In this document: piece by piece, positions 1-25,219 of the stretch
Layout of the letters: each line of letters begins with the position of its first letter
How positions within the stretch are numbered: position 1 is the stretch's first letter
DNA from: a virus
UHGV virus genome: UHGV-0293664
DNA length: 64,000 nucleotides
Strand: one strand, 5' to 3'
Position numbers and translations under genes: made by a program
The notes under the pieces: generated by a model
Seen by the model: the letters and a program-made list of their open reading frames with translations, nothing else
Databases searched by the model: none
Told to the model about the DNA's origin: nothing

Positions 1-396
1 GTGTATAAAGATGGGAACATATTTCTTATTAAAACTTACGGTCACTCAGTAACAGCTAATGAGCCAATCGCCCTCGGGCCTACTGGTAACGACGATTTTT
101 TGAAGACGGTTGGGTGGGAGCCAAACAGAGACATAGCCAGAGCCGGGGATAAAATATCTGTCAATGATGAATTGAAAGTGGTAACAGCTCCAGTGCGTAG
201 CGATGGTGTTGGGTCTGCTGTTATAGGTATATCTCCAAGACTTAGAAAACCTATTGCCGCAGGGGACACCATGAAGATAATAACTCAATCTCCGAAGGGT
301 AGGTTTCATATCAGAGATATTTATAAAATTAAGCAAAAAGTCGATGCTATGCAAAAAGGTGATAATATAGTTATCAACTTCTTTGAGGATTTTTAA
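1..396 (+). CDS. Tail-module protein, probably truncated at window edge
   Basis: ORF in frame from position 1; stop TAA 394-396 two nt before next tail gene; no motif recognised. Confidence 0.45.
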   Translation: MYKDGNIFLIKTYGHSVTANEPIALGPTGNDDFLKTVGWEPNRDIARAGDKISVNDELKVVTAPVRSDGVGSAVIGISPRLRKPIAAGDTMKIITQSPKGRFHIRDIYKIKQKVDAMQKGDNIVINFFEDF

Positions 397-397
397 G

Positions 398-949
398 ATG
401 ATCAGAGCGCCATTAGATAATTTATTTCTTGAAAAGCTGGAGCTTGATGGTGTTGAGATCTTAATTGCTGCAAAGCTGGAGCTACCGACAGGAACTGTCA
501 GGGTGTGCTCAGGCACTGGTGTTGTAGTAATTGAGGGGCAACATTTTATAGGGATAGGGGGATCAGCAACATTAACTGCTGTGTCTGAGAAAGATGCCAC
601 CAACTTCGGATCTGTGGTAGCAACATTAAACGGGTTTGATCCTAAGTATGTGGGTGATCTGCTGAAGACAGAGTATTCTGGTTGTCGTGCCACGTTGTAC
701 ATTACCGCTATGGAGAATGGTCTGCCTGTCACAACCAATGGCTTGTTTGACGGTCTTATAACAGATATGGCTATTCAGACAGGAGAGAATAGTGCTTTGT
801 CCATATCCATCTCTTCCATCTTCAACAGCTGGTTAAGAGGTTTTCCTTATCGGTACACTGAGGAAAGCCACAGCTCAAGAAACGATAACGACAGATTTTT
901 TAAATATGTGGATCAGGTGGCGAGCCGCCCGATCATTTGGGAGGTTTAA
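398..949 (+). CDS. Minor tail protein (tail-tip assembly module)
   Basis: ATG 398 just after upstream stop; stop overlaps next start (TAATG 947-951); sits upstream of gpJ-like gene. Confidence 0.55.
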   Translation: MIRAPLDNLFLEKLELDGVEILIAAKLELPTGTVRVCSGTGVVVIEGQHFIGIGGSATLTAVSEKDATNFGSVVATLNGFDPKYVGDLLKTEYSGCRATLYITAMENGLPVTTNGLFDGLITDMAIQTGENSALSISISSIFNSWLRGFPYRYTEESHSSRNDNDRFFKYVDQVASRPIIWEV

Positions 950-1374
950 TGAGCACACATCCTCGTTTAGTGGACTGGCAAGAAAGATTGTGGAAAGTGT
1001 TTGACGAAGAGGCCACCATACCTTTTGAATGGGGATTCCACGATTGTTGCACCTTTGCGGCTAAGTGTGTTGATGCCCAATACGGAACAGATTTTCTTTC
1101 TAACTTCGAAGGAACGTATAAAACAGAGTTGGAAAGCAAGAGATGGTGCATGCTTCATTTCAAAACCACACACCTGCCCACTATTTTTGATTTCTTTATG
1201 ACTCGGCTGGACACTCCTAAACAGGTTCAGCGTGGCGATATTGTTATCTTCAAAGGTCTGAACGGCCTCACAGCTGGTGTGTTCTGGAACAACCAGATTT
1301 GGGCGAAAGGTGATAAAGGGGTCTTTATGTTCGACATGAAAGATTCTATCGTTGTTGATGTCTGGAGGTATTAA
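949..1374 (+). CDS. Tail assembly protein, possibly NlpC/P60-like peptidase (gpK/gpI position)
   Basis: ATG 949; FEWGFHDCCTF Cys motif; stop overlaps start of gpJ-like gene. Confidence 0.45.
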   Translation: MSTHPRLVDWQERLWKVFDEEATIPFEWGFHDCCTFAAKCVDAQYGTDFLSNFEGTYKTELESKRWCMLHFKTTHLPTIFDFFMTRLDTPKQVQRGDIVIFKGLNGLTAGVFWNNQIWAKGDKGVFMFDMKDSIVVDVWRY

Positions 1375-4300
1375 TGCCAATTGCAATGATTGATAACATC
1401 GTTGCTTCTGCAAGATCTTCAAGTTATGACTGGAACGCATCCAAGGCAGCTCTGGCTGACAGCCTGAACACTGTTACCACCAGAACTCTGGATAAGATTT
1501 TTGAGGGCAACAAATCTTACAGAAGTCAGCAAGATAGACAAAAGCTTCTCAGATCTTCTGCTGCACCCTGCTCTGTAGTGTATGGGAAGACACGCACATC
1601 CGGATTGCTTGCGTTTTTGGAGCAGGACAGAGACAGAACCCTCCATTGTGCTATTGTTCTTGCCAATCATCCTCTAGAAGGTATAGAAGACATACTCATC
1701 GACGGTAATCCTATTTCCTCGTATGGAGATCTGGTATCGTGGGAGCTACATAACGACAGAAAAACATCTGATCCTTTCATGGGTACACACTGCCCATCAT
1801 GGTCACCTGACATGATAGGTAGAGGGATCAGTTGGCTACGTGCCAGCTTCAGGTTTGACCCTAACAAGTTTCCTTTTGGGTTGCCAAACGTTACACTCGT
1901 TAAGGTTGGTAAAAAATGCTATGATCCTCGCATCAGTAAAGAGGTGTATACCAATAACGCGGCCTTGGTGATTCTAGACTATTTAAGAACGTACCTTAAA
2001 TGTCCTGACGAAACCATCAACTGGGAGTCCTTCAAGGAGGCTGCTAACATATGCGACGAGGCGGTAAAAAACGCAGACGGAACCAGTGAGCGCCGATACA
2101 CCATTAATGGCGAGTTTGACATGGACGAGGCTCCGGCAAGCATTATGGCAGAAATGCTGAAAGCTTGTGGCGCAGATCTCAGCTATGTAGCTGGTAAGTA
2201 TGGTTTGCTGGTTGGTGCATACTATGGCCCGGCAACAATGACGCTGAGTGAGGATTGTGTCTGTGGTGAGGTTAAGATCTATCCGGAAGCCTCGTTTGAC
2301 AAAAGATCCAACACAATAACTGGCAGATTCACCAGTCCGACCAAAGGGTATTCTGAAACAGATTTTCCATCAGTGTTTGTCCCAGAGTGGATAGAGAAGG
2401 ATGGAGAAAGAAAGATAATCGATATAGACTACCGCTTTGTTACCAGCCCTTATCAAGCTCAGCGTGTTTCTGCAATATTTTTAAGACGTGCTAGAGCTGG
2501 CAGGATTATTGAAGTCACCTGCAATATGCGAGGTTTTAAATTTAAACCTGGCCGTTACGTTACAATGAATCTCCCAAGTATTGGTATAGTGGGCCAAGAA
2601 ATGAGGGTTCTTGAGTGGGAGTTCACCAAAAAGGGCGGTGTCAAGGTAAAACTTCGTCAAGATGCTAAAGAGTGGAATGATGCCACAGGGCAACTTCCGG
2701 ATTCTGGCGATGTAGATATTCCGATATCCCCATCCGGTGTAGCTCAACCGCAAAACTTCAGATACTCCGTCCTCCAAGCTGGGGAAATAACTCACGGTGT
2801 TCTGGCTTGGGACAACGTTGGGACTTACGCTCAAAATATTGTGCAGGTAAGAAAGAACGGAGAGATTGTTTGGACAGCACAGACAGTTGAGCAGTTTGTC
2901 CGAGTAGAAGGCTTGACCAAAGGGTCATACACAGCAACCGTGGTTGCAACATCCTATAAAGGTGGTGTATCTCCAGAAGCGTACTGCGAGTTTAACATTC
3001 AGGCACCTGAAGCTCCGGTTTCTGTAGAGGTTAAGCAGGGATATTTCGCTATCACCTTGATTCCGCATAGTAGGGATTTAGCAAGCGTAAGCACCCAGTA
3101 TGACTTTTGGACATCTGGTATGACAAGGTTGCCAGACACCAGTGATGCTACCGTTACTTCAAAAGCCACCCGTATGGGTGTTGGTTCAACTTGGACGTCT
3201 GAAGGTCTCCAGAACGATAAGGTTTATTATTGGTATATTCGAACCACAAACGCTTTTGGTAGCTCTCAGTTTGTAGAATGCGCTGCACGCTGCTATACCT
3301 CTATTGAGGATTTGATGCCTCAGATAGATGCTGAATTCAAAAAGACAGAAACTTATAAAGAGTTGATGAGCACTTTGGATTCCTCTATTGAAGAGGTTGA
3401 AAATCGTGTCACAGAACTTAACAGGTACATGGATGGTAGGGTAGATGAAGCGTTCCAACAACTTGGGGACAGAATAGGTGCGGTAGTTACAGAAACAACT
3501 CAGAAGTTTGAAGATGTCAATGGTAACATTACAGCGCTGGATAGGAAACTTGTTGCTGCACAGAACAAATTCACCAACGATCTGAACACTGAAAGTGGCA
3601 GACTGGCATCTCTGATCGAGACAACCAATAAAGCAACTACTGATCTTCTGAACAAAAAGACAGAGGCTTTAGATGAGAAATTGGTTGCCGCCAAAGGTGA
3701 GCTGGTAGAGCAGATAGAGGGAGTTGAGAGCGGGTATTTAGCCGGAGATAAAACTCTGGATGGTAAGATCAATACTCAGAGAACAGAACTTGACGCAAGC
3801 ATCTTGAGCACTAACCAGGCAACTGTGGATCTTTTGAACAGGACATCTGAAACTCTGGATCAAAAGATCAGTCAGACAAACGCGACGGTATCTAAAAACT
3901 ATACCACCCTGGATGGCAAGATAACCACCGCAAAAACTGACCTCAACACCTTGATTGCCAATACCAACAAGGCCACCACTGACTTGTTGAATCAGAAAAC
4001 ATCTGCACTGTCAGAGCAGATAACTTCTGCACGTGGGGAGATTTCTACCAACAAGCAGGCGATTGATGCTTTGGATGGAAAACTGACTTCCACAAAAACA
4101 GCGCTGGATGCTACAATTTCCGATACCAACAAAGCCACTGTGGACCTTATCAACGGCACAGCGTCAGCTATTCGTCAAGAACTTGCTGTTGCTAAGCAGG
4201 AGATCATTGATGATGTTGGGGATGTGTCCGAGATCAGGGCTGCAGTAGCTACAACATCTAAGGCTGTAACCGACTTGGAGGGTAAAGTAAATGCTCAGTG

Positions 4301-5213
4301 GGGTACAAAAATACAGGTGGACTCCGCAGGGAATAAATATGTTGCAGGTATCCAGTTGGGGATGGAAGGGTCTGGGGGCCAAGTTCAATCCTACTTCATG
4401 GTTAGCGCAAACAATTTTGCGGTATACAACCCCGGCAATGGAACAGCAACCCTTGCTTTCGCAATCAAGAACAACCAAGCGTTCTTGAAAGACGCTTTTA
4501 TAGAGAATGGCACGATCTCTTCTGCCAAGATCGCACAAGAAATTTCGTCAAACAACTACGATGGCAACGGGTACCATAAATACGGTTGGTATATTAACAA
4601 GAACGGGCACGCCCAATTTATGGATGTGTGGGTGAAAGGCAACATCAACGCCAGTTCTGGTAACTTCACAGGGGCAGTTAACGCCACTAGTGGTACCTTC
4701 CGTGGGGATGTTTATGCCAACAATGGTAGCTTTAGGGGCACCATAGATGCAACCGGAGGTACCTTCCGTGGGCGTGTAGAAGCTTCTGTTATCCGCGCTA
4801 ACCAGTTCGAAGGTGCAATTGTTGCACACAGGACTTACGGAGATTGTGCTCCAGTATATAACTCCCGGCAAAGGGTTTGCCGTTGGAGGTGGAGATATGT
4901 GGACAACGTGCAAGGCCAAGGTAAAAACGTAACATTCTTCTTTAAACTGAACGGTACTCGTGCCAACTCTCAACTAAATGCGTGGATAGCTGGTCACCAA
5001 CTACTTGCTGGCAAGAAGTACGGAAACGATAACGATGGCATGTGTGCAGTTGGGATAACAGGTCTAGGTGAACAAACTATAGACATTATTATCGAGATTT
5101 ACACACCATGGTCAACAGGGAACGTGACAGGCATTACAATATCTTGTCCTACAGTCGTTGTAAGTCGTTCTAACTCAAGTTTCCAAGGTCCTTGGAATGA
5201 GTCTCACGACTAA
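1374..5213 (+). CDS. Central tail fibre / host-specificity protein (lambda gpJ-like) with inserted coiled-coil repeat segment
   Basis: 1279 aa; GYFAITLIPH, YYWYIRTTNAFGSSQFVE and YVAGIQLGMEG segments align to lambda J from memory; periodic TTDLLN/ATVDLLN repeats. Confidence 0.85.
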   Translation: MPIAMIDNIVASARSSSYDWNASKAALADSLNTVTTRTLDKIFEGNKSYRSQQDRQKLLRSSAAPCSVVYGKTRTSGLLAFLEQDRDRTLHCAIVLANHPLEGIEDILIDGNPISSYGDLVSWELHNDRKTSDPFMGTHCPSWSPDMIGRGISWLRASFRFDPNKFPFGLPNVTLVKVGKKCYDPRISKEVYTNNAALVILDYLRTYLKCPDETINWESFKEAANICDEAVKNADGTSERRYTINGEFDMDEAPASIMAEMLKACGADLSYVAGKYGLLVGAYYGPATMTLSEDCVCGEVKIYPEASFDKRSNTITGRFTSPTKGYSETDFPSVFVPEWIEKDGERKIIDIDYRFVTSPYQAQRVSAIFLRRARAGRIIEVTCNMRGFKFKPGRYVTMNLPSIGIVGQEMRVLEWEFTKKGGVKVKLRQDAKEWNDATGQLPDSGDVDIPISPSGVAQPQNFRYSVLQAGEITHGVLAWDNVGTYAQNIVQVRKNGEIVWTAQTVEQFVRVEGLTKGSYTATVVATSYKGGVSPEAYCEFNIQAPEAPVSVEVKQGYFAITLIPHSRDLASVSTQYDFWTSGMTRLPDTSDATVTSKATRMGVGSTWTSEGLQNDKVYYWYIRTTNAFGSSQFVECAARCYTSIEDLMPQIDAEFKKTETYKELMSTLDSSIEEVENRVTELNRYMDGRVDEAFQQLGDRIGAVVTETTQKFEDVNGNITALDRKLVAAQNKFTNDLNTESGRLASLIETTNKATTDLLNKKTEALDEKLVAAKGELVEQIEGVESGYLAGDKTLDGKINTQRTELDASILSTNQATVDLLNRTSETLDQKISQTNATVSKNYTTLDGKITTAKTDLNTLIANTNKATTDLLNQKTSALSEQITSARGEISTNKQAIDALDGKLTSTKTALDATISDTNKATVDLINGTASAIRQELAVAKQEIIDDVGDVSEIRAAVATTSKAVTDLEGKVNAQWGTKIQVDSAGNKYVAGIQLGMEGSGGQVQSYFMVSANNFAVYNPGNGTATLAFAIKNNQAFLKDAFIENGTISSAKIAQEISSNNYDGNGYHKYGWYINKNGHAQFMDVWVKGNINASSGNFTGAVNATSGTFRGDVYANNGSFRGTIDATGGTFRGRVEASVIRANQFEGAIVAHRTYGDCAPVYNSRQRVCRWRWRYVDNVQGQGKNVTFFFKLNGTRANSQLNAWIAGHQLLAGKKYGNDNDGMCAVGITGLGEQTIDIIIEIYTPWSTGNVTGITISCPTVVVSRSNSSFQGPWNESHD

Positions 5214-5217
5214 CAGT

Positions 5218-5246
5218 AAAGCCCCGCTTCGGCGGGGTTTATTTTT
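5218..5246 (+). terminator. Rho-independent terminator
   Basis: CCCCGC-TTCG-GCGGGG hairpin followed by T-run. Confidence 0.8.
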
Positions 5247-5255
5247 ATGCTCAGA

Positions 5256-5284
5256 TTGACTATTGTTACAAAATTTGGTAAAAT
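5256..5284 (+). promoter_or_regulatory. sigma70-like promoter
   Basis: TTGACT, 17-nt spacer, TAAAAT. Confidence 0.55.
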
Positions 5285-5317
5285 ACCTTGTAGAGATTTT
5301 CATACCGGAGGAGTGAC

Positions 5318-6808
5318 GTGGCTAAGTATGGATTGACAGAGGCTGGTTTCGTTATACCAACCCTAAATGACCTAATCGTTGAAACTAAGCAAAGCCTGAT
5401 CCGTGCTTTTGGCGAAAACTTCAACGTACAGAGTAACTCCGTTGCAGATAAGCTGACCACTATCTTCAACGAGCGAGAGTATCAACTTATTCTTATGGCA
5501 GCATCTGTATACGCATCACAGACGCTGTATGGGGCAGAAGGTATTTACCTGGATGAGCTTCTTGGAAGACAAGGTATTTACCGAAGAGGCCGTTCTAAAT
5601 CATCAGGTACCTGCCAGTTGACAATCAACACAACTGTGCCGTACAATATGATTTACGATTCCAAAACTTACACACTGGACAGTGGGAACTTTGTTCTTAG
5701 CAATGACGTGCAGGTAGCGGGAAATCTTATTGCTCATAGGATAAACGCTCCAGATCTAAGAATTGGGAAATACAACTTTCAAATTACCAACCAGACAGAT
5801 GGAAGTATCAAAACAAAAAGTCTGGTTTTAACAGATAAGGCTCTGGACTCTTCTGATCTGCCAAGCTTTTACGGAGAGATTAAGCAGTTCATTGTCGATA
5901 ATACAACCCTGTTGAACGACGATTTGATTCAGATCGATATGTTGACAGGAACGTTGTGGATAGGGTACAATTCGAATCTTGATCAAGTTGGACTTAATAG
6001 TAGAGTAGATTTCAGGGTATCCCCGATTGTAGGGGAAAGAACTATTACCCTGGATGTTATCGCTAACGAGGCTGGTGAGCTGTCAAGAGAGGCAGAAACC
6101 GTGACAACAATGTCGCCTACTCCCAGCGGATTTATCAAACTCACCAACCGAGAAAGATTCAATGAGGGTAGGGATGTTGAGAAAGACTCAGAGTATCGCT
6201 TAAGAGCTTCCAGCACAAAACAGTTAACATCTAAGGCTACCCGTCCTGCAATCCTTAGCGCTGTAAGCGAGGTGAAAGGTGTTGAGAAAGTGAGAGTGTT
6301 CTCCAACAACACCGATAAAACTGATGCTAAAGGTATACCTCCTTACAAGTTCCAAGTGGTTGTGTTTGGTGGTGCAACGGAAGACATTTGCCAAGCACTT
6401 TACCAAACTATAGCCTGCACGAACAGGACTTATGGTAATATTTTCTACGATGTCACTACATCTGACGGTCAAACTGAAAGAATTTATTACTCCAAGGCAA
6501 ATACCTACCGCCTAGATGTAAGAATTACCTACTCCGGTGCTGCGCTTTCCACAACCGAAAAAGATGCCATTACAGAGGCCCTTTTGCATGTTGTTAACGG
6601 ACTAGATGTTGCAGATACGTTGTACAATATCCAATTGGTCGGTGCTGCATCTGCTGCTGTGTCGATAGGCAGATTTAATAGACTGGTAATTCAAGTTAAA
6701 CCAGTAGGAGCTTCTGATGAAGCTTACACTACAAACGATATTGTTGCGAACATGACCGAGGTGTTTGACCTCGACGAAAGTAATATAACTTTCCAACAAA
6801 CTATTTAA
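5318..6808 (+). CDS. Tail/baseplate structural protein
   Basis: 496 aa; GTG start with GGAGGAG RBS; located in tail module. Confidence 0.5.
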   Translation: MAKYGLTEAGFVIPTLNDLIVETKQSLIRAFGENFNVQSNSVADKLTTIFNEREYQLILMAASVYASQTLYGAEGIYLDELLGRQGIYRRGRSKSSGTCQLTINTTVPYNMIYDSKTYTLDSGNFVLSNDVQVAGNLIAHRINAPDLRIGKYNFQITNQTDGSIKTKSLVLTDKALDSSDLPSFYGEIKQFIVDNTTLLNDDLIQIDMLTGTLWIGYNSNLDQVGLNSRVDFRVSPIVGERTITLDVIANEAGELSREAETVTTMSPTPSGFIKLTNRERFNEGRDVEKDSEYRLRASSTKQLTSKATRPAILSAVSEVKGVEKVRVFSNNTDKTDAKGIPPYKFQVVVFGGATEDICQALYQTIACTNRTYGNIFYDVTTSDGQTERIYYSKANTYRLDVRITYSGAALSTTEKDAITEALLHVVNGLDVADTLYNIQLVGAASAAVSIGRFNRLVIQVKPVGASDEAYTTNDIVANMTEVFDLDESNITFQQTI

Positions 6809-6819
6809 GGCGGCGAGAT

Positions 6820-7506
6820 ATGGCAGAGATTAAGTCGGATGTTAACCACATCCACACTCTGCCAGATTTTGTTCAGGGAGGTCTTGACTACCTGCCTGGA
6901 GATTTTCTGGCTGAGAAGGTTAATTTAGTCACATTCTTAACCGTGTACCTTAAAAGGTTGGAGGATGTTGATAAGATGCTGGTAGGTTTGGCTGAAGGAA
7001 GATTGCTTAACAATGCCAGCGGAAGATACCTTGACGAGGTTGGTAATCAACTTGGTATTCTTAGGAATGGACTTTCAGATGCTGATTTTCGTGCCACACT
7101 AATTATTCAGCAGGCCGCAGCATCAAGGGGCGGGACTCGCGAAGATGTCATCTCCACCTTGCGACAATTGTTCGGAAGAGACAATTTCGATACGTGGAAA
7201 GGAGACAACTTCCGGTTTGACATAAATATTAGAAAAACTTGCTTTGACATATTGCAGTCTATCGATCAGATCTTAGATATGCTACCATTGCCTTGTCATT
7301 TGCGTCTTACAGAATCGCAAGGGCAAGCTTTTGGTTTTGAAGGGGACTCTACAGCTCTTGGCTTCGGATCAGTGTGGGAAGAAAACCAATTCGGAGTTGG
7401 TGGGCTGGCTACTTTGCTGTATGTTCCTGACGTAAGACCTGATTGGGACACCACAACCATTTATTGTGAAAGTATTACAGTAAACGCAACTAGACAGGAG
7501 GGTTAA
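6820..7506 (+). CDS. Tail/baseplate structural protein
   Basis: 228 aa; RBS present; stop/start coupled to next gene. Confidence 0.5.
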   Translation: MAEIKSDVNHIHTLPDFVQGGLDYLPGDFLAEKVNLVTFLTVYLKRLEDVDKMLVGLAEGRLLNNASGRYLDEVGNQLGILRNGLSDADFRATLIIQQAAASRGGTREDVISTLRQLFGRDNFDTWKGDNFRFDINIRKTCFDILQSIDQILDMLPLPCHLRLTESQGQAFGFEGDSTALGFGSVWEENQFGVGGLATLLYVPDVRPDWDTTTIYCESITVNATRQEG

Positions 7507-9578
7507 TGGCAACAGCTGTTTTTAAACCTTACCGTGATTACTCTACAATGGCTGCACAGTTTCATTACCGCACAGTTCAGGATACTGCCGTTCCTGGTAG
7601 GGATTATGATCATGTTGAGGGCGATGTAACTATCCCAGTCGGGGCAACCAGTATTGAGATTCCGGTGGAAATTGTTGACAAATTGCCCAACAGATTGCCA
7701 AGAAGCTTCTTTATGGAGTTTTCATCAAAATCTCAAGGGGTGATGATTGGGACACAAAGGGCGAAATGTACAATAGTTTCAGATGAGAATCTTGACAGGA
7801 TATCTTGGGATACTGTCGAGGAGAGAATGTTCCACCCAAGATATTGGGTTACAAATACTCAGCAGACTGAAAGTACCTGTATTGTTGCAGATAACAACTG
7901 TTGTATTAACCGTTTAGTGTCAAGAACATATGGAGGTGTGGCTGGGTGCATTTGGGAAACAGTTGACAAGTATGACCATTTCGGTATTGGGTTTGATGAT
8001 CACTATGAGATGAGAAACACCAAGCTTTGGTTCAGAATGTCAATAACCAACGCCAGCAACTTCTCCACTCCTGAAAAGATGATTATGACTGTAGACCTTG
8101 TTGATGGCACAATCATCTATGTTCCTTTAGCTCAATATGCTGTCAGCATCTCAGAGGATAAGAATGTTGCAGAAATTCATATTGATTTTGAGGACTGCGT
8201 CGGGATGGACCAGAACAACAACATGATGGGTGTTGATCCTCGGCAGGTGAGAAGGATTTTAATACCGCTCATGCCTAAAGACTGGGTAAGTAATAGCACA
8301 GACCCGAGAACGGAAAATGTAGAGTGTGAGTTGCGCCTAGATTTGCTTCAGCCAGACACAGGCTGGAAAATGATGCAACTTAACAATATTCAGGTGAGAG
8401 AGCACGACGTTGGGATCTGCACCGCATATGACGATATGTGGAACGTATCTCCTTTAAGGGTGTTGAACAATATCAAGCGTCTGGGCTATACCGGAACCAT
8501 AAACCATTATGTTGGTATGAGTCATTATTATGACTACACATGGTCAGGAACCCAATGGTCTATAAACAGAACAGGAGCGCTAAACGCTGCAGCTTATAAA
8601 TGGCATGATGATTTTATGTACAATGCCAAACGACATAACTTCGACGTTATGCAATCTGTAAGTTTTGAGCTTTTCAGCGATGCCTGCCCGTTGGAATGGA
8701 CCCAAAGAGACTGGAACGATAACTATGCTAAAACAGGCTATACGCCTTGTAGTTACCTCCTATCTCCAACCATTGAAGAGGGTATGAATTTCCTTACTGC
8801 AGTATTTAAGAATTTTGCATCAGCCGCTATGAGAAACAATCTGCCAGTGATTATGCAGATTGGTGAACCGTGGTGGTGGTTCAATACCGATACTCGTAAG
8901 CCTTGTATTTATGACTACCCTACAAAACAGGCGTTTTATGATGAGACTGGTGAATATGCACTAGACATTGGGACTATTGACGATCCTAAAACTGGCGGTG
9001 TTTATGACAAGTATGTAGCATTTTGTCGTGGTAAGCTTGGCGCTCGTATTGCGGCTATTTCAAAGGCAATAAAGGCACACGCTGCATCAGCTCAGATGAC
9101 AGCTCTGCTGTTTTTCCCAACCATTATGGAAACCGAGCTTACGCAAAAGCTGAACCTTGCTGACCAATATAAAAAAGAAGCAGGTGCTCTTGATTTCTTC
9201 TGCACTGAGTGCTACGATTGGGTGATGCAGGGAGGTATTGAAAAGGCAAAAGAGTCTGTAAACATACCTATCGTTAAGTTAGGTTGGCAACCGTCTGAAA
9301 TACAATACCTTGCAGGGTTCGTTCCTAGCAAAGAGCTTGCTCCGGTATATGGCTACGACCCAACCAGGAATTACCAAGAATTTTTATGGAGATGTATCTG
9401 CGGAAACATGGCAACCATAGAGTATAGATACCCTGAGGTAAAACAGTATGTGTGGGCATACCCGCAAGTAATGTCTGACAGCATCACTGTTACCGCTAGG
9501 GATTCTACCGTGCTTCATATAGGGCAGGTTGCTCTGAAAGGGTATGTAGAAGATGTTGTCCCGCCAGACTTCTCATAA
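7506..9578 (+). CDS. Tail/baseplate structural protein
   Basis: 690 aa; ATGA-type coupling with upstream gene. Confidence 0.5.
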   Translation: MATAVFKPYRDYSTMAAQFHYRTVQDTAVPGRDYDHVEGDVTIPVGATSIEIPVEIVDKLPNRLPRSFFMEFSSKSQGVMIGTQRAKCTIVSDENLDRISWDTVEERMFHPRYWVTNTQQTESTCIVADNNCCINRLVSRTYGGVAGCIWETVDKYDHFGIGFDDHYEMRNTKLWFRMSITNASNFSTPEKMIMTVDLVDGTIIYVPLAQYAVSISEDKNVAEIHIDFEDCVGMDQNNNMMGVDPRQVRRILIPLMPKDWVSNSTDPRTENVECELRLDLLQPDTGWKMMQLNNIQVREHDVGICTAYDDMWNVSPLRVLNNIKRLGYTGTINHYVGMSHYYDYTWSGTQWSINRTGALNAAAYKWHDDFMYNAKRHNFDVMQSVSFELFSDACPLEWTQRDWNDNYAKTGYTPCSYLLSPTIEEGMNFLTAVFKNFASAAMRNNLPVIMQIGEPWWWFNTDTRKPCIYDYPTKQAFYDETGEYALDIGTIDDPKTGGVYDKYVAFCRGKLGARIAAISKAIKAHAASAQMTALLFFPTIMETELTQKLNLADQYKKEAGALDFFCTECYDWVMQGGIEKAKESVNIPIVKLGWQPSEIQYLAGFVPSKELAPVYGYDPTRNYQEFLWRCICGNMATIEYRYPEVKQYVWAYPQVMSDSITVTARDSTVLHIGQVALKGYVEDVVPPDFS

Positions 9579-12976: not shown

Positions 12977-14722
12977 ATGGCGCAAGACATGACAAGCTTT
13001 GAGCAGGCGGTAGATCAAGTAATTGTTGATTCTGAACGTTTGCACCTGATTGTCAACGGTAACGCTGTGGATGAAGTTGTCGTAGAGGATGGGACCACCA
13101 TCCCTACGGTACGAAAAGCCATGCTTGACACCCTTTATTTTAAAACGCCACCGATCCCTTGGGCGTATGGTGCATCCACAACAGTTTTTAACCAGCTGTA
13201 CGAGTTTAAGGGGGACACAGGCCCTCAGTGGTGGTACGCTCCCGCAGCATCAAAATCTAACCCGGTTAGAATGCCAGCAGATCCTTCACAATCTCCAAAC
13301 TGGAGATTATATACAGATTCTGCAGTAATGGCAAAATACTACGCAAAACTTAACAGTCCGAGGTTCGAAGGTGACCCGCGAGTACCGACACCTCCAATGG
13401 ACGACAAATCCGAGTCTATAGCAAACACAGAGTTTGTTGTTGACTACGTGGATAGCATATTTGAAGCCATGGAGGGGATGAAAGTTACTGTAGGGTCTTT
13501 GGTGGTAAAAGGTCTTACAGAACTTGCTAACACCATAGTTGGTGGCACACTCACCCTACATGGGCCTGTTAATGGAGCAGATTCTACTGCACGCTTCAGG
13601 AACCTAATCCTCACGGCAAACACTTCTACACTTACTTTTGCGTGGAGCGATCCTAAGCATGCAGACTGGAGAAGTACAGAGCTGCAGCCTCATGAAGTGT
13701 CCACCCACAGGATTATAGCTGACACTATAACTTCTGGGAAACCAGTGGCTAATAATAACGATGTGCATTTTGATGGTCTAGGTAATAACTTTTTTGACTA
13801 CGTGTACATTCGTGGTAATGCCATGAAGGCAGCAACCGAACCGACATTGCAGGTAGATGGAACCACCAGGGTTAAGAACCTTGAGGTGACAGGTACTGTT
13901 ACAGGAATAACCTACTCTGTCGATGGCACCATGATCTACCCTAGCTATATTGAAAGCACGGGGGACGCATTAATAAATGGTGATTTAGAAGTTGGCGGAT
14001 CTGTAGTTATTCGAGGTACAGCCTCTATCCAAAACATAGCTCTGAATACCTTAAGAGTCAATGAGCGTGCAACTTTTGAAGGAGAAGGGCTTGCAGCCAA
14101 TAAAGGTACAATTACCGAGCTGACCACCACCACTCTAACTGCAACAACTGCAAACTCTGAAAACTGCAACGTTACCAGAAACTTGCAGGTAAATGGGGAT
14201 GTTAGTTTAAACGCAGCAGGTACTGGCACCACCTACCTGCACAACCTTGAAATATCCGGCACAGTGACTGGGTGGCTGCCAGACTTCTCTAATGTCAACT
14301 TTGTTTGTAATGGCATTAACTCTAGCGGTAAGATAACCACCTCTCAAGGAATTGAAGCTGGTAAAACCATTACTGCCCCTACTTTCCACGCAGGGAAGGT
14401 AGATTTTGATTTAGAGGAGGTTGACGCGTCCAGTGGGACATGGACACCTAACGGGCAGGCCAGTATGTATGTTGTCCACGCGAAAGGGGATTTTACAATA
14501 GGACAGTGGCCTGGGACATCAGCGGAAGATAAACCTTATCCATTCACTGCAGTTATCTATGTAATTCAGGATGCTGTAGGTCACAACGTGACTTTGCACG
14601 ATAAGTATGCCATCCTGTCGGCAACACCTGTTATTAACAACAAGGCTAACAGTGTTACCTTGCTGCAATTAACGTATTGTGGTGTTGGTGATATTGTAGA
14701 CGTAGTAATTGCACAACGTTAA
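12977..14722 (+). CDS. Tail fibre or tailspike protein
   Basis: 581 aa; Thr/Gly/Asn-rich repetitive beta-type sequence. Confidence 0.55.
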   Translation: MAQDMTSFEQAVDQVIVDSERLHLIVNGNAVDEVVVEDGTTIPTVRKAMLDTLYFKTPPIPWAYGASTTVFNQLYEFKGDTGPQWWYAPAASKSNPVRMPADPSQSPNWRLYTDSAVMAKYYAKLNSPRFEGDPRVPTPPMDDKSESIANTEFVVDYVDSIFEAMEGMKVTVGSLVVKGLTELANTIVGGTLTLHGPVNGADSTARFRNLILTANTSTLTFAWSDPKHADWRSTELQPHEVSTHRIIADTITSGKPVANNNDVHFDGLGNNFFDYVYIRGNAMKAATEPTLQVDGTTRVKNLEVTGTVTGITYSVDGTMIYPSYIESTGDALINGDLEVGGSVVIRGTASIQNIALNTLRVNERATFEGEGLAANKGTITELTTTTLTATTANSENCNVTRNLQVNGDVSLNAAGTGTTYLHNLEISGTVTGWLPDFSNVNFVCNGINSSGKITTSQGIEAGKTITAPTFHAGKVDFDLEEVDASSGTWTPNGQASMYVVHAKGDFTIGQWPGTSAEDKPYPFTAVIYVIQDAVGHNVTLHDKYAILSATPVINNKANSVTLLQLTYCGVGDIVDVVIAQR

Positions 14723-14729
14723 TATATCT

Positions 14730-14757
14730 AACCGCTCCTGACGGGGCGGTTTTCTTA
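14730..14757 (+). terminator. Rho-independent terminator
   Basis: ACCGCTCC-TGAC-GGGGCGGT hairpin followed by TTTTCTT. Confidence 0.75.
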
Positions 14758-14770
14758 TCTGGAGAACACA

Positions 14771-17700
14771 ATGCTTCCAATCCCTTTGCTAAAACTTGGT
14801 CGTCATTTCCTCGATAAGAGGGGTGGAATTAAGGAACTTGCTGTTCTGTCATACCCAATAGACAACAGTGATGGCACAAGCACTACAGTATCCTATGTAA
14901 ATAGTTTAGCTATACTTTTTGATGATGGTCAACTCAATATCACGGGCTATAACAGGTTCGGAGAGTGCCGCACTGGGGGTCTTGACACGATAAACTACCC
15001 CAACGAGGCTGCCTGGAACGTTGATCATGTGTGGAGAGCAGACCGTGCGTTTGTGATCCGAACTTTTGATAACCAGTTTTTCTACATCGGCTGCACTGCA
15101 GGGCTTATTGGGTCTGATGCTGCAGGCGGTAATGATGTTTGTGTAAGAGAGTGGACACCTCTTCCTGAACAGATCGTTAAAGGGTTGCACCTTGACACCC
15201 ACCCAGAGCGCCTTATTGAAGTAATGGGCGGTATTAACAACACTATCTGGGTTATTGCAGAGGCAGAAGGCACTGGCATACTTAACCTGTATGGATCTGG
15301 TAACAACACCTACGGATCTTTGCATGTAGATAAAAATCAGCATGCAACCCCTGTAAAGATCGGTGAGACATCGGAAAATCCTGAAACAGGCCCTTGGAAA
15401 AACCCAAGCATCAACTGCGAGGTGCATGACAACTCTGTTATTTTCGGTGGTCCTAGAGGTTTCTGGATTGCTGGATACGACTTTCTGAGAAATAACAGTA
15501 GAAACGATCTTGTTTGGCCTCCTGTGCAGATTACTCGTAACGATTTGAGGGGCATTCCTGCAGATGAGGAGTGGAAAGGGTTTATGTGTGGTCCTAACGG
15601 GGCAATAATTGCCACACAGAGGATGCATAGACCCGATGACCAGCAGCTTGTTAACGTATTCTACGGGCAAGACGTTTGGGGAGATGACACATGGCGTTCC
15701 TTAAATATCACCTACACCCATGAGGTAATAATGGCTCGTGGGTACGGCACAAGTGGCATTTTCTTCAATAATGGCACTAAGCAGTATCGTGGATTCTCTC
15801 GCAACTTGTGTAATGATATTGGCGCACAATCTGCAAACAATAGCCCTAGGGCCAATTTTATCCACTATCAAGCTCTTGCTACAGCTAAATATGTTGAGCA
15901 ACGCCTGCCAGTTAGCTGGACAGAGAGTGTTTATTTCCAAGGCATCCACAGGGAAGGTTTCTTAGGAACCTTTACTGTTGTTAATGGTAAACTTTGGTGG
16001 TCAGGCATCCCAAGGGGGAGTTTTGCAGGCTCTAACAACCTGTTTGGCGGCAGACTTAATAGTCAGGGGTTCACAGAGGTTCCTGAGAATTGGTATAAAA
16101 ATGTCCCAGTAGACAGTTGGGATGTTGATGATATTTTCGACGTTAACGGTGTTAGCAGCGTTAGCAATATTTACATTGGTGACACGGTCAAGATGAAATT
16201 GAAGCCTCAGCCAGAAGGGGCTACGTTCATTATTGACAAGATTGAACTGGTAAATGCTGCAGGCACGGTTGTTACAGATGCAAATTACCAATTCTCCACC
16301 AACTGGAACCACGGCGGGGCCAATGAAGTTGTTGTTACCCAGTATAACAGAAATGTTAACAGACGTGGCCTGTACTCTGTAAAAATAACTTATCATGACA
16401 AGCATGGCACAGGCAGAACCCATACGACAAGGACTTTGAACTGGAACACCATAGTTCCTGCGTATCCGTCTAACGGCAAGTGGCATACCGTTGGTAGAAA
16501 CAAGCAGTTCCATGTTAACGATACTGTATACTTTGGGCTGAATGGTACTCAGCCTGCAGTAGAAGGTGATACATCATATATGGTCCGACTCCACAGAATG
16601 GATGCTGGATCAGTCACTTACGATGTTACCCAAGAGATTTATGATCAGAGAAGAAATACCTACAACAACTTGGTGCAGACACAGGCCGTATGGGAGTTCA
16701 ACCCTAACGGCAGAGGTGGTAAAATGTTGCAGGTTAACGAGCAAAACGGAACGTCGTTAACTGTCCACAAACACCCAGACCCTTGGCCTGATCCTGGAAA
16801 ACCTCACCCAGGCGCTCGTACGCTGAAAATTGTCAGCCATGATGTAGGATATTTCGGAATACGCTGGGAAGCTACAGTAAGGTATGCCGACGGGACAACA
16901 AACAACATAGGGATTACACTTGGTGGCACCAGTGAAGATAACTCGCTGAAAATTGCCTACACTCCTAGAGGTATATCTATTGACAATATGGATGTTGTTC
17001 GCAATGGTTACGGCGATGTGAATGTCAAAGTTACTCTTGGCGAACATCTTGGTGGGGAAAGGATCATCATGTATGCTTTTGATCATGACCCGCGTACCAA
17101 CGGAACTTATGCAAATCAGGCATGGAGTTACCTGATAAATGCACCTGGGCCGAATACTAAAGAGTTCTACTACGGCATGAAGCGAGATGTGTGCAAGAAA
17201 ACAGGAACACATGACTGGATTGCTATCTGCGTTAAAGATGAGCGCACAGCTTGGGATGAGCCTGTTAACAGATGGTTCATAGGTATTCCTACCAGAAGTG
17301 ATAAGTATGTCGCAGAATATATTGTATGCATGGGCGGTACCAACCTGAACATGTGTTGGAACGAGGATGCAAACAAATACTCTGATTATGACTATATGAG
17401 GGACTACTCTTGTAATCAGTGGTTTAACCAATCAACAGGATACCCTCCACGTCAGGCGAGAGTAAACCCTGCAATCTTCACAGATACGCAGGTTTTCTTG
17501 ACAAAACAGGCCAACAAGGTTCAGACCTTCAAGAATAAATACGATCCTAACAAGTGGTTCTACAACTGTTACGGCGCATTTTTCTGGGGACCTGGTGAGT
17601 TACCTGGTGGAGGATCTTGCTTGAATGAGGCAACTTACGCCAGTGACTACATCATGGGGCAGGTCAAGAAGTATAAGATAATCCCCGGTCCTGAGACTCT

Positions 17701-20398
17701 GGGCAATGCCGTTGACCCTTATATCATCATGACTGCACTGAGATCAAACATGGACGGGACATCCATGTCTATGCAAATTCCGGTAACAAACGGGTACAAA
17801 CGTGTTGTGATGATCATTAAGTGCGACTTAATAGGTAAACAAGTTCTTGCAGAAAACGGGACATCCACACATCCTTTTGAGATTGCTCTGCACTATCAGT
17901 TTGCTGACTCGCCTTTTGCAGGTGATAAGAGAATATCTGATACAGATGCACAGCGTTGTAAGAAAGTATTGTTGGGTGCAGGTTGGTGGTGGTATGAGTT
18001 TGATTTAACAGACAAATTCACCGACACGTCTAAAGTTGTAACAGGACTTCGTCTAGACCTTGGCGAGAACATGCACAAAGCTGTTTGTGATGGCACCTAT
18101 GGTGACCCTACAATATACCTAAAATATATTTCTTTTGAGCATCCGGAAGATGTTGTCTACGGTCCAAAACTGAGATTGTTTGGCAGTTGGATTGCAAAAG
18201 ATAGGGTAGGCATGGGTAAGAAGGTGAGAGGGTTCTTGGTTGATGCAGGAACAGAAGACATGCTGGTTAATGCAGTATGGCCTGAATTACCTGGGACTCA
18301 GTGGAACAACTCAGCCAAATCTATAAACTGGTTTAACATCCACAGGGCTATGTGGACCACTAACTGCTACTTGTGGAGAGAGCTTAACGATCAGGCTTTT
18401 GGCTTCAGTGATGGCAGGAGGATGGCGATCATTTGCTGGACAACGCTGCAAAGATGCTATGACCATGACTACGAGATTGGTGGTAGGGCATGGAAAAATA
18501 TCAGGGACAGAATCATAACCAATTTTGCAGACGACAACGGTGGTGGAGCACATAACTTTGGCACAAGCCGACTTATCCATTTGAATGGATCCTCGGCCTA
18601 CAAGAAAGAAGGTTACTCAGGGTCCATGATCGAGTGGGGTCTGGTGAAAGATGCTCGCGTATTGATGGGCCAGCAACTTGCTGCCGCAATAGGCCCAAGC
18701 GCAGTGCAGTCGGTTAAACCAGCGTGGTTCGATATCCCATTGTGGTCACCAGGAACACCGGGAACTGCTGCAATCAACCCTACCACTGGGGATCTAGAAA
18801 TATCCTGGGAGGACTTGAAGCAGGTCGGTGGTTGGGATAAAACGGGGTATCAGGTCCAGTGGTGGAGGGCTGATGGATCTTTAGCCTCTGATGAGTTTGT
18901 TAAGGACAATTTCTACACCATGTCCTCTGCAAAAGCACAGCAATTATTTGGTCAGGCCACTCCGTCAACGATCACCATGTCTATGTGCTGTAAAGACAAC
19001 AGGACTGGAGCTTTGGGGCCAAGGGTTGCTAAGGTTTTCTCAGGTATTAAATGGAATCTCCCTGTTCAAAGTGTTTCATGGAAGCAAATAGGTGATAACA
19101 AGCTGCTGGTTACCCCTGCCTGTCAGTTCAACGCAACTCTTAACGTTGATCCTGCTGTTGCGGCAAACTCAGCTAAAGCTTCTGACTTCTCTGTGTCTAA
19201 CACTGCTATGGCAGATGTGAGGAAGATTGACACACTGAACGCCAGAATTACCTGTAAAAACACTTATGGCACATTCCAAATCATCAACAACTTCACAGAT
19301 GCTGATTCTAAGGTAGTAAGGACAGCAAGCCAGACTCTGAGTTTAGGGACTCTGGCCTATGCGGCCCTGATCACCGAACAGTCGGCAACACTCCAAGGAG
19401 GCGGTGTAGGCAAGTCCATTGCAACACCTGTGTGGAAGCCGAATGAGTGGGTTGTGTTTGATTTGACTGTGGACTTCTCCAGTGATAATAACTGGACATG
19501 GGTAAGGAATTGTTTGTCACAGTTGATGGGCGGTCCAAGCTCCATTAGCGATAGTCACGACTCTACTGACCCGAGCGTGTTCCAGGTGGGTAAAACTCAC
19601 CCAGAGACTGGAGAAACGTTGCCTGACAGGAAGTATGCTTTGGTTTGCATCTCTTACGGGAAGGCAGATGTCACCTTCTCAGGGACACACACTTATAACG
19701 GAACCTACAACTTCTCAAGGAAGTATAGTCTCAAAGCAGGGAACATTGTAGACGAGGTTGGTGTGCTGTATAATCCAGGTAACGGCATAGGGATTGTGGG
19801 TGGTCAACTGCAGATGCAGGAACCTTCTATTACACCTTCCAACGTATCCGGGATTAGAAAGACTTGGGAAAGTAGTAATACCAACATTGCAACAGTGGAT
19901 GCCACCACAGGACTGGTAACATTTAAAGCCACTGGGAATGTCACCATAAAGTTTGTAGTTACAGATGATGCAGGCCGCAAAACGTCTTCAACATCATTCA
20001 CTGTCAAACAGATGGCACCTCAGTGGTTTATTTGGGAAGGAAATCCTCTTGACGGGGCTTACCCTAGACCTGCAGGAACGTCTAATATGAGGGTCTTTAC
20101 CGGTCCGGTCATGAACAATCCGACCACAACCACCAACCCTACATTTTTTGGTGCTTACATACCTGAAATCATTGGCCTACCAAGGAACCAGATACAACTG
20201 CTTTTCGGAGCAGGTGTTGATGGTCTAGCCACCTTTGGGTACAGTGACAACATTGATGCAGCCAGAAGCTCGGGTTGGATTGGATTTAAGTTCCAGTGGA
20301 ACCCTGGTGGTAGAACATTAGGTCTTGCAAGCATAGGTGTTATGCTACCTGGTAACCAGCAATACCATCTCGAAGCTTATACAAACTTCCCTAGTTAA
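14771..20398 (+). CDS. Giant tail fibre / adhesin-like structural protein with Ig-like domain
   Basis: 1875 aa; Trp/Asn/Gly-rich; Big_2-like segment near residue 1700 (TGLVTFKATGNVTIKFVVTDDAGRK). Confidence 0.6.
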   Translation: MLPIPLLKLGRHFLDKRGGIKELAVLSYPIDNSDGTSTTVSYVNSLAILFDDGQLNITGYNRFGECRTGGLDTINYPNEAAWNVDHVWRADRAFVIRTFDNQFFYIGCTAGLIGSDAAGGNDVCVREWTPLPEQIVKGLHLDTHPERLIEVMGGINNTIWVIAEAEGTGILNLYGSGNNTYGSLHVDKNQHATPVKIGETSENPETGPWKNPSINCEVHDNSVIFGGPRGFWIAGYDFLRNNSRNDLVWPPVQITRNDLRGIPADEEWKGFMCGPNGAIIATQRMHRPDDQQLVNVFYGQDVWGDDTWRSLNITYTHEVIMARGYGTSGIFFNNGTKQYRGFSRNLCNDIGAQSANNSPRANFIHYQALATAKYVEQRLPVSWTESVYFQGIHREGFLGTFTVVNGKLWWSGIPRGSFAGSNNLFGGRLNSQGFTEVPENWYKNVPVDSWDVDDIFDVNGVSSVSNIYIGDTVKMKLKPQPEGATFIIDKIELVNAAGTVVTDANYQFSTNWNHGGANEVVVTQYNRNVNRRGLYSVKITYHDKHGTGRTHTTRTLNWNTIVPAYPSNGKWHTVGRNKQFHVNDTVYFGLNGTQPAVEGDTSYMVRLHRMDAGSVTYDVTQEIYDQRRNTYNNLVQTQAVWEFNPNGRGGKMLQVNEQNGTSLTVHKHPDPWPDPGKPHPGARTLKIVSHDVGYFGIRWEATVRYADGTTNNIGITLGGTSEDNSLKIAYTPRGISIDNMDVVRNGYGDVNVKVTLGEHLGGERIIMYAFDHDPRTNGTYANQAWSYLINAPGPNTKEFYYGMKRDVCKKTGTHDWIAICVKDERTAWDEPVNRWFIGIPTRSDKYVAEYIVCMGGTNLNMCWNEDANKYSDYDYMRDYSCNQWFNQSTGYPPRQARVNPAIFTDTQVFLTKQANKVQTFKNKYDPNKWFYNCYGAFFWGPGELPGGGSCLNEATYASDYIMGQVKKYKIIPGPETLGNAVDPYIIMTALRSNMDGTSMSMQIPVTNGYKRVVMIIKCDLIGKQVLAENGTSTHPFEIALHYQFADSPFAGDKRISDTDAQRCKKVLLGAGWWWYEFDLTDKFTDTSKVVTGLRLDLGENMHKAVCDGTYGDPTIYLKYISFEHPEDVVYGPKLRLFGSWIAKDRVGMGKKVRGFLVDAGTEDMLVNAVWPELPGTQWNNSAKSINWFNIHRAMWTTNCYLWRELNDQAFGFSDGRRMAIICWTTLQRCYDHDYEIGGRAWKNIRDRIITNFADDNGGGAHNFGTSRLIHLNGSSAYKKEGYSGSMIEWGLVKDARVLMGQQLAAAIGPSAVQSVKPAWFDIPLWSPGTPGTAAINPTTGDLEISWEDLKQVGGWDKTGYQVQWWRADGSLASDEFVKDNFYTMSSAKAQQLFGQATPSTITMSMCCKDNRTGALGPRVAKVFSGIKWNLPVQSVSWKQIGDNKLLVTPACQFNATLNVDPAVAANSAKASDFSVSNTAMADVRKIDTLNARITCKNTYGTFQIINNFTDADSKVVRTASQTLSLGTLAYAALITEQSATLQGGGVGKSIATPVWKPNEWVVFDLTVDFSSDNNWTWVRNCLSQLMGGPSSISDSHDSTDPSVFQVGKTHPETGETLPDRKYALVCISYGKADVTFSGTHTYNGTYNFSRKYSLKAGNIVDEVGVLYNPGNGIGIVGGQLQMQEPSITPSNVSGIRKTWESSNTNIATVDATTGLVTFKATGNVTIKFVVTDDAGRKTSSTSFTVKQMAPQWFIWEGNPLDGAYPRPAGTSNMRVFTGPVMNNPTTTTNPTFFGAYIPEIIGLPRNQIQLLFGAGVDGLATFGYSDNIDAARSSGWIGFKFQWNPGGRTLGLASIGVMLPGNQQYHLEAYTNFPS

Positions 20399-20410: not shown

Positions 20411-20440
20411 AAAAAGGGGCCGTTTGGCCCCTTTCTTTTT
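20411..20440. terminator. Bidirectional rho-independent terminator between convergent operons
   Basis: A-run, GGGGCC-GTTT-GGCCCC hairpin, T-run. Confidence 0.8.
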
Positions 20441-24429: not shown

Positions 24430-24693
24430 TCAGAAACCCTCTAAAAAGCTCTTGTAGAAAACAATCTCAGTGTCCACACCAGTCACAATCTTGTCGTTCC
24501 TGATTTCATCGGTAAGATAGGTGTCAAAACGCAGAACCTGTGTGGTGTTGTCACACATCCACTCAGCTGTGACCATTGCGAAAATCTTAGCATCTTCATT
24601 ATCCGGTGTAAATGTTACCACCTCACCGCATTTAAACTTTTCGATAGGTTGAGTGTTAGCTTTCGGCTCTGCGATAGTGATTTTTGTGGTCAT
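24430..24693 (-). CDS. Small protein, tandem paralog 3
   Basis: 87 aa; CGEVV and FD motifs shared with neighbours; start overlaps upstream stop. Confidence 0.5.
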   Translation of the reverse strand: MTTKITIAEPKANTQPIEKFKCGEVVTFTPDNEDAKIFAMVTAEWMCDNTTQVLRFDTYLTDEIRNDKIVTGVDTEIVFYKSFLEGF

Positions 24694-24956
24694 TATTCTC
24701 CTCCTTGTTTTGAATAGCTTGTCTCTCCAAGGATGGTAATTTTGGTATCAAGCTCTGTAACTTTCATGTTTGGTGGCAGATCGTACAACTCCTTATTTTC
24801 TAAATCGAACCCCCACACACAATGTTCTCCTGTTTTGACAATCATAACTATGTTTTGAATGCCGTCTCCGTCGCAACTTACCACGGTCCCACACGGAAAA
24901 CTATCTGCACGCTTTTTGTTCTTCACCTTAGAATTGAATACAATGCTAGTAGCCAT
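24693..24956 (-). CDS. Small protein, tandem paralog 2
   Basis: 87 aa; MAT...K.KK...GTVV...WGFDL...VTELD...ILGE shared with paralog 1. Confidence 0.55.
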   Translation of the reverse strand: MATSIVFNSKVKNKKRADSFPCGTVVSCDGDGIQNIVMIVKTGEHCVWGFDLENKELYDLPPNMKVTELDTKITILGETSYSKQGGE

Positions 24957-25219
24957 TATTGTTCCTCCACCATAACTTCGCCAAGAATTTCTATGCAGGC
25001 ATCCATTTCTGTAACAACCAAGGTGTGAGGTAGTTCTGCAAACACCTTTCTGAACAGGTCAAATACCCCAACATATATGTTTGCAGGATGTGATTTTACA
25101 ACAAGTGCTGTATTCACATCCCCAAGTTCATCAACAAACATCACCACAGTGCCTGGAGCTACTGAAGACAGATACTTCTTAGTTTTACGGTTTGATGCAA
25201 ATTTTAACTCTGTTGCCAT
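24956..25219 (-). CDS. Small protein, tandem paralog 1
   Basis: 87 aa; AAGGAGG RBS; same length and motifs as paralog 2. Confidence 0.55.
   Translation of the reverse strand: MATELKFASNRKTKKYLSSVAPGTVVMFVDELGDVNTALVVKSHPANIYVGVFDLFRKVFAELPHTLVVTEMDACIEILGEVMVEEQ

Follow-up and report, generated by a model that had tools for sequence, protein, structure and literature searches.

The open reading frame (ORF) at positions 14771..20398 (+ strand) of the virus genome UHGV-0293664 encodes a protein of 1875 amino acids, which on balance is read here as a giant accessory adhesin of the Vequintavirus gp27 type, made in low copy number, probably monomeric, docked on the virion through an N-terminal β-propeller and broadening host recognition. 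The stretch of DNA that was analysed, 64,000 nucleotides in length, is referred to as the window; positions are those of the whole window and residues are numbered along the 1875-residue product. The window is from a Vequintavirus, an rV5-like myophage, and the gene has been recorded and named before, being the orthologue of rV5 gp27 (92% amino-acid identity). This named orthologue had been missed by a first-pass annotation made from the sequence alone, as had the N-terminal propeller and a middle part of ∼900 residues that is without relatives.

In the proposed arrangement the conserved N-terminal propeller would dock the protein on the virion, either on a neighbouring fibre or at the edge of the baseplate. 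A flexible string of about nine β-sandwich domains [immunoglobulin-like (Ig-like), a jelly roll resembling a carbohydrate-binding module (CBM), FN3-like and Big_2] would extend from the propeller, broken by a Trp-rich helical region peculiar to the family, and would end in a small exchangeable tip with two alleles that may contact a host-specific surface structure. Weak and reversible binding to surface glycans or other structures on particular hosts would increase adsorption there, and virions would assemble, and infect Escherichia coli K-12, without the protein.

The gene and its orthologues

The ORF opens with an ATG at 14771 and closes with a stop codon at 20396–20398; a GGAG ribosome-binding site is seen in the sequence 6 nt 5′ of the ATG (14761..14764, +). 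The product has a computed mass of ∼208.2 kDa and a computed pI of 6.5. The very large ORF of the first-pass annotation was thus found to be exact and intact on the + strand, and a chance origin of an open frame of 1875 codons at 45% GC is far out of question. The richness in Trp, Asn and Gly that had been remarked upon was also recovered (3.09, 7.36 and 9.87%, corresponding to 2.9, 1.8 and 1.4 times the general protein background, respectively). A search of the ORF for tandem or internal repeats in the DNA gave none.

The ORF shares 98.3% nucleotide and 99.2% amino-acid identity with bas59_0040 of Bas59 (Escherichia phage EduardKellenberger, Vequintavirus), and the orthology of bas54_0041 of phage Bas54 was checked here. 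rV5 gp27 (1878 amino acids, 208,334 Da) is described as a 'conserved hypothetical protein' with a Big_2 domain (PMC3606486, Table S3). The authors of the BASEL collection used the name 'lateral tail fiber protein with intimin domain' and counted the gene among three large allelically varying fibre genes, the correspondence between genes and fibres being unclear in this set (PMC8594841). Between the ORF of the window and rV5 gp27, bas59_0040 and bas54_0041 there is no material difference: the gene, its length, its position and its flanking terminators are the same. The family phrog_15684, to which the protein belongs and which has no assigned function, was matched end to end (4431 bits, residues 1–1874 against a 1878-position profile). 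With a coverage of 80% or more, the gene is found at 90–99% identity in about 108 phage records, the ORF being intact (1875–1878 amino acids), and more distant members of the family at 40–58% identity keep the gene, which indicates purifying selection.

The + strand genes 5′ of the ORF are baseplate and tail-fibre genes; a bidirectional intrinsic terminator lies behind it (20411..20436, matching t026/t027 of rV5) and the genes 3′ of this terminator are on the − strand. The gene therefore closes the tail module, as the first-pass annotation had stated. The gene order is the same in Bas59, in Bas54 and in a metagenomic relative of 40% identity.

N-terminal domain

Sequence comparison provides good support for an RCC1-like β-propeller at residues 1–445 (14771..16105, +; homology to ∼449), which is presumed to be the virion-attachment module. 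This is the best-conserved part of the protein, with 70–79% identity to relatives that are only ∼50% identical overall. In BLASTP searches, residues 1–449 aligned with residues 1–399 of 4MG gp038, a 567-residue Seunavirus protein (E 7e-14), and residues 1–197 aligned with ESCO13 gp245, an 891-residue Phapecoctavirus protein (40% identity, E 2e-28), to which the last blade (residues 393–440) could also be aligned. The homologues were scored above the cutoff of the Pfam RCC1 family PF00415 (21.7 bits), with 32.7–36.9 bits for 4MG and GAP31 and 24 bits for ESCO13, and the Seunavirus and Phapecoctavirus proteins matched the 'RCC1-like domain' PF25390 (E 1e-9 to 1e-11) together with RPGR, HERC2 and UVR8 in the PDB. 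A joint profile (A4) built from the gp27 family plus these homologues retrieved HERC1 (E 2e-7), UVR8 (E 1.7e-6) and HERC2 (E 1.2e-5) from the PDB; at E < 0.1 its matches were all RCC1-like, and they fell at the repeat signature YGSGxNxxGxLG. Weak PF25390 matches were also obtained for the divergent family members P0003 and P0007. Searched alone against the Pfam RCC1 families, the 1875-residue protein gave only a sub-threshold match to RCC1_2 (E 0.053, 13.8 bits against a cutoff of 22).

Seven GxN/GxG repeat motifs were counted by eye in residues 1–∼445 and the propeller probably has seven blades, a number that was likewise read by eye only; self-comparison of the N-terminus with hhalign gave one weak repeat pair (E 0.13) from an alignment with an effective number of sequences (Neff) of only 1.3. 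The relation to eukaryotic-type RCC1 domains (RCC1, HERC1/2, UVR8 and RPGR) is a very remote one that emerged only when the homologues were included. Guanine nucleotide-exchange or chromatin roles such as those of the eukaryotic proteins are not suggested here, and the domain would rather serve as an attachment or binding platform.

In all three genera the tail module ends with the propeller gene, as it does in the metagenomic relative of 40% identity. In Seunavirus (PVP-SE1 gp40, GAP31_232 and 4MG gp038; 567 amino acids; phrog_11922) the protein in this slot consists of a propeller and two Big_2 domains, and in Phapecoctavirus (ESCO13 gp245, 891 amino acids) a homologous propeller is followed downstream by one or more Big_2 domains. 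Both are two to three times shorter than the 1875-residue protein and lack the orphan region 441–1640. The Phapecoctavirus protein (compared stretch 6001–8676) differs further in that its residues 615–831 show homology to Rcc01080, the head spike fibre of the Rhodobacter capsulatus gene transfer agent (RcGTA; PDB entry 6tb9, E 5.7e-14), a part that is absent from the 1875-residue protein.

Central region

Structure prediction was performed with AlphaFold2 on residues 1–1000 and 741–1875 using an alignment of 16 sequences. The models are nearly all β and contain separate, confidently predicted β-sandwiches; the helical region was not resolved. The structure prediction of segments that the first-pass annotation had proposed as a check thus yielded the individual β-sandwiches and left the propeller and the helical region without a resolved fold. 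A Foldseek search of the models against the PDB returned generic Ig-domain arrays only.

Residues 446–840 (16106..17290, +) are predicted to form about three Ig-like β-sandwiches composed of β-strands only, with a predicted local distance difference test score (pLDDT) of 50–76 in both models; weak matches to PF16403 were found for this region in the relatives P0003 and P0007. They are followed by a conserved orphan segment, residues 841–936 (17291..17578, +), which carries invariant GGTNLN, DYxRD and FTD motifs, was modelled with a pLDDT below 30 and found no match in Pfam or the PDB. A larger β-sandwich is predicted at residues 937–1125 (17579..18145, +; pLDDT 60–86), for which a CBM-like jelly-roll fold is weakly suggested. 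Residues 1126–1331 (18146..18763, +) form a Trp-rich orphan region that is predicted to be helical (pLDDT 20–30) and in which many Trp, Glu and Asp residues are invariant. An FN3-like β-sandwich at residues 1332–1428 (18764..19054, +) is related to repeated modules in phi92 gp153 and N4 gp65, and the fastest-evolving part of the protein is the β-rich stretch of residues 1429–1676 (19055..19798, +), with 15–33% identity to divergent relatives. Within this stretch an Ig-like domain is predicted at residues ∼1591–1670, the pLDDT being 75–90 from residue 1591.

An exhaustive phmmer search of residues 441–1640 against 1.84 billion representative proteins returned only two family members and two weak matches at the FN3-like piece. 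The core of ∼900 residues is therefore confined to the rV5-like phage group, since almost nothing outside the family was retrieved. In a word-indexed homologue search 15 family members were found for the full protein, and the N-terminus and phi92 gp153 as queries gave three and two matches, respectively.

C-terminal region

A Big_2 bacterial Ig-like domain occupies residues 1677–1745 (19799..20005, +). The match to Big_2 (PF02368; residues 1677–1733, E 1.6e-8, 34.8 bits against a cutoff of 22.8) is the sole one above threshold in Pfam. The Ig-like domain of the first-pass annotation thus stands as a domain, whereas its position has to be corrected from C-terminal to subterminal, a tip of ∼130 residues (1746–1875) following it. 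The 'intimin domain' of the earlier annotation goes back to Big_2. In a PDB sequence search intimin was matched with an E value of 0.004 over ∼48 residues; membership of the intimin family was rejected, as the NCBIfam model intimin_all scored 21.2 bits against a cutoff of 1400 and the match comprises ∼40 residues of one Ig domain.

The C-terminal tip domain, residues 1746–1875 (20006..20395, +), exists as two discrete alleles and is presumed to be the ligand-binding end. In 114 Vequintavirus records the last 150 residues were at least 95% identical to those of the window in 38 cases and 60–80% identical in the other 76, with none in between, while the rest of the protein stayed 90–99% identical. 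The window carries allele A (38/114 records) and rV5 carries allele B, at ∼66% identity. A reciprocal mosaic was also observed: P0001 is 96–100% identical except at the tip (67–73%) and P0002 is 76% identical overall and 87–99% identical at the tip. Such a cassette-like replacement is as expected for a ligand-binding end. The C-terminal 135 residues found no match in the PDB.

In Bas50 (DrSchubert; compared stretch 201–5827) a deletion of 1 nt cuts the orthologue to 1818 residues, so that the tip is lost, and this phage grows on K-12. In the phages nomine, magaca, phita32, ime, V18 and APECc02 the gene is annotated in pieces (as two coding sequences in several deposits). The frameshift and the split annotations fit dispensability under laboratory propagation.

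Comparison with other phage and adhesin proteins

In phi92 the same slot (compared stretch 6321–7983) holds gp152 (202 amino acids, two Big_2 domains and no propeller) and gp153 (295 amino acids), for which the record notes the lack of a ribosome-binding site. The family phrog_32204 (655 positions) spans both the gp152 and the gp153 parts, which suggests that the gene has been split or has degraded in phi92. Residues 1218–1419 of the 1875-residue protein aligned with phi92 gp153 at 25% identity (pairwise E 5e-9); the hidden Markov model of the family scored only 16.5 bits against gp153. gp153 in turn matched the repeated FN3-like modules of N4 gp65 (PDB entry 9lc0_I, E 1e-24), below which many Ig-like adhesins, S-layer proteins, lambda gpV-C and intimin were ranked.

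N4 gp65 (non-contractile sheath/receptor-binding protein; PDB entries 9lc0 and 9yf4) has been solved as a one-chain receptor-binding protein of ten domains (PMC13434306), and a large one-chain multi-domain receptor-binding protein is thus a real phage design. Its likeness to the 1875-residue protein is limited to the FN3-like modules: PF23844 (NCTSP_N) and the split TIM barrel PF23845 of gp65 are absent from the 1875-residue protein, and gp65 has no RCC1 propeller. Identity with a gp65-type sheath was rejected, PF23844 and PF23845 being located instead in a 690-residue protein encoded at 7506–9578.

Big_2 is common to the 1875-residue protein and to intimin, invasin and other Big_2 adhesins, and intimin D1/D2 is the nearest solved sequence match. 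Unlike intimin, the protein has no β-barrel, LysM or C-type-lectin domain, and the 'intimin domain' amounts to one Big_2 fold. Ig-like domains are likewise carried on phage virions by lambda gpV-C and T4 Hoc, and chains of such domains are presumed to bind surfaces or carbohydrates weakly.

Expression and virion association

Between the gene for an upstream 581-residue fibre protein and the ORF a terminator-like hairpin was found (CCGCTCC-TGAC-GGGGCGG and then TTTTCTTAT; 14730..14751, +; 9 bp stem, six G–C pairs). It is identical to the predicted terminator t028 of rV5 (−12.4 kcal/mol; rV5 Table S4), and no promoter is entered between t028 and gene 27 in the rV5 tables. Transcription of the 1875-residue ORF may accordingly occur by read-through only with a low yield; small amounts of the protein would be made because the gene sits behind an intrinsic terminator and has no promoter of its own. 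Low expression of this kind would fit the low spectral counts of rV5 gp27: mass spectrometry of rV5 virions gave three peptides and nine spectra for locus 27, with 3.1% coverage (PMC3606486). Virions of the related phage W70 have been found to contain RCC1-type proteins (PMC11370258). Evidence that gp27-type proteins are present in the virion is thin.

In a transposon study of Bas54, bas54_0041 took disruptive insertions, and neither the formation of virions nor infection of E. coli K-12 required it (bioRxiv 10.1101/2025.11.20.689424, a preprint). The same study found some fibre genes to be conditionally essential on clinical isolates, the genes not being named in the text.

Assessment of the interpretation and its alternatives

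Several observations weigh against the interpretation as a propeller-docked adhesin. Both AlphaFold2 models are poor overall, with a mean pLDDT of 42.7 for residues 1–1000 and 54.2 for residues 741–1875, and the former does not fold the propeller confidently (pLDDT ∼25 over residues 144–434). An N-terminal profile built from the gp27 family alone retrieved nothing in the PDB, and the RCC1 assignment is for this reason transitive through the homologues. The rV5 gp27 peptides are non-tryptic and weakly scoring, and gp27 is not named among the structural proteins in the text of the paper (PMC3606486); by electron cryo-microscopy (cryo-EM) no more than three fibres were resolved in Bas49 and Bas54, none of which was attributed to a gp27-type protein (PMC12143355). 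The orphan region 841–1331 contains many invariant Asp, Glu, Trp and His residues and could hide an enzyme that lies outside all libraries. Lastly, the phi92 gp153 that residues 1218–1419 resemble is called a 'tail carbohydrate esterase' in some genome records.

These last two points bear on the reading offered by the first-pass annotation and, in spirit, by the BASEL label, namely that the protein is a trimeric lateral tail fibre or tailspike with a polysaccharide depolymerase or esterase at its centre that sets capsule or lipopolysaccharide specificity. This is considered unlikely. The gene does lie inside the lateral tail-fibre cluster, Maffei et al. (PMC8594841) place it among the fibre genes cited above, and region 841–1331 is conserved, has invariant acidic and aromatic residues and shows no recognized fold. 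No catalytic family (β-helix pectate-lyase-like, sialidase, lyase or SGNH esterase) was found, however, at E ≤ 1 with the whole protein or at E ≤ 10 with segments in Pfam and NCBIfam, and searches of Pfam, NCBIfam, PHROGs and PDB sequences did not yield the depolymerase or other carbohydrate-active catalytic domain that had been envisaged. The Pfam annotation proposed as a check therefore returned the adhesin-like Big_2 without a catalytic carbohydrate domain. The esterase label is given to gp153 homologues in two records, and gp153 itself has a weak SASA esterase match (E 0.008, below the cutoff); this match (residues 41–110) lies almost wholly N-terminal to the aligned part (102–288). The idea of an SGNH/SASA esterase was dropped on this ground and because no GDS(L)-like or DxxH-like invariant pattern was seen. 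BLASTP at E ≤ 1 did not recover the published likeness between gp27 and the N-terminal part of gp150, the colanidase of phi92 (PMC7229145); the true phi92 counterparts are gp152 and gp153.

As regards trimerization, neither Pfam nor the predicted secondary structure revealed a β-helix, coiled coil, triple β-helix or C-terminal S74 chaperone domain, and there is no adjacent assembly-chaperone gene, the next genes being on the opposite strand. Seven-bladed propellers and Ig-like strings, such as those predicted here, are typical of single-chain proteins. The protein is taken to be probably monomeric and may bind glycans without acting on them. Of the adhesin-like fibre of the first-pass annotation the adhesin is retained, in view of Big_2, the position in the fibre cluster and the variable distal end; no support was obtained for a fibre of the usual trimeric kind.

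A second alternative places the protein away from the baseplate, as a Hoc-like decoration protein or a head or neck fibre whose Ig domains provide non-specific adherence to mucus or cells. It would account for the match of residues 1592–1760 to phrog_215 ('structural protein with Ig domain', head and packaging), for the homology to the head spike fibre of RcGTA at the end of the Phapecoctavirus protein in the same slot and for BFVD matches that include a Hoc-like outer capsid protein and Ig-bearing major head and tail proteins. Dispensability in the laboratory and the lack of baseplate density attributed to the protein are also compatible with it. Against this, the gene is contiguous and co-oriented with fibre genes and far from the head genes, discrete replacement of tip alleles is a signature of specific receptor recognition rather than of generic adherence, and the very low spectral counts argue against a capsid-wide coat. 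A decoration protein is distinctly improbable.

It is very unlikely that the product is not part of the virion at all, being instead a non-structural late protein, or the product of a decaying gene, with an RCC1-like domain that acts in or on the infected cell. The weak mass-spectrometric evidence, the frameshifted or split copies in several isolates and the dispensability on K-12 would agree with this, and RCC1-like phage proteins are often labelled 'chromosome condensation'. The purifying selection described above speaks against it, as does the identification of RCC1-type proteins in purified W70 virions. The domain content is a further point against a non-virion protein, Big_2, FN3 and Ig-like domains being typical of extracellular and virion-surface proteins.

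Significance

rV5-like phages are used in biocontrol and are considered for therapy owing to their broad host range, which has been attributed to a 'Swiss-army-knife' set of fibres (PMC8594841); the 1875-residue protein is the largest of this set. The additions made here to its annotation (the RCC1-like propeller as a conserved slot-specific module across three genera, the orphan core, the two-allele tip and the upstream terminator) are useful but incremental, and current views are not overturned. A probable propeller-anchored single chain, a two-allele tip and dispensability on K-12 provide handles for host-range engineering and for the assignment of unexplained cryo-EM density, and the orphan centre is a reasonable place to seek a new glycan-binding or glycan-modifying fold. 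A more far-reaching proposal, which at present seems quite doubtful, is that the gp27 family constitutes a distinct non-trimeric host-recognition appendage, in which an RCC1-anchored single chain would combine an exchangeable tip that sets conditional host range with a family-specific core of ∼900 residues, without relatives among 15 billion proteins, that contains a new carbohydrate-active or carbohydrate-binding fold.

Neighbouring genes and database records

Homology (E 3.3e-76) links the upstream neighbour (12977–14722, +, 581 amino acids) to chain 9cuy_g, a solved structure with the name 'putative tail fiber protein' whose source is probably phage phiTE. In a relative, the counterpart of this neighbour has PF26208/PF26209 (Phage_phiTE_241_N/C). 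The neighbour is a candidate for the docking of the 1875-residue protein.

The 690-residue protein encoded at 7506–9578 (+) contains a complete PF23844 NCTSP_N domain and a complete PF23845 TIM barrel (270 bits), and represents a one-chain form of the TIM barrel that phage N4 divides between gp65 and gp64. The label given to it in BASEL is that of a fibre with glycosidase and deacetylase domains, and recognition of enterobacterial common antigen (ECA) has been proposed.

About 15 GenBank records (MG0656xx) labelled 'Campylobacter phage' (host C. jejuni) are ∼94% identical to E. coli Vequintavirus over the gene and others match phi92-like phages; the host labels of these records look doubtful.

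On the − strand, three consecutive ORFs of 87 amino acids each (24430–24693, 24693–24956 and 24956–25219, together 24430–25219) match three successive hypothetical proteins of Bas59 and look like a tandem triplication.

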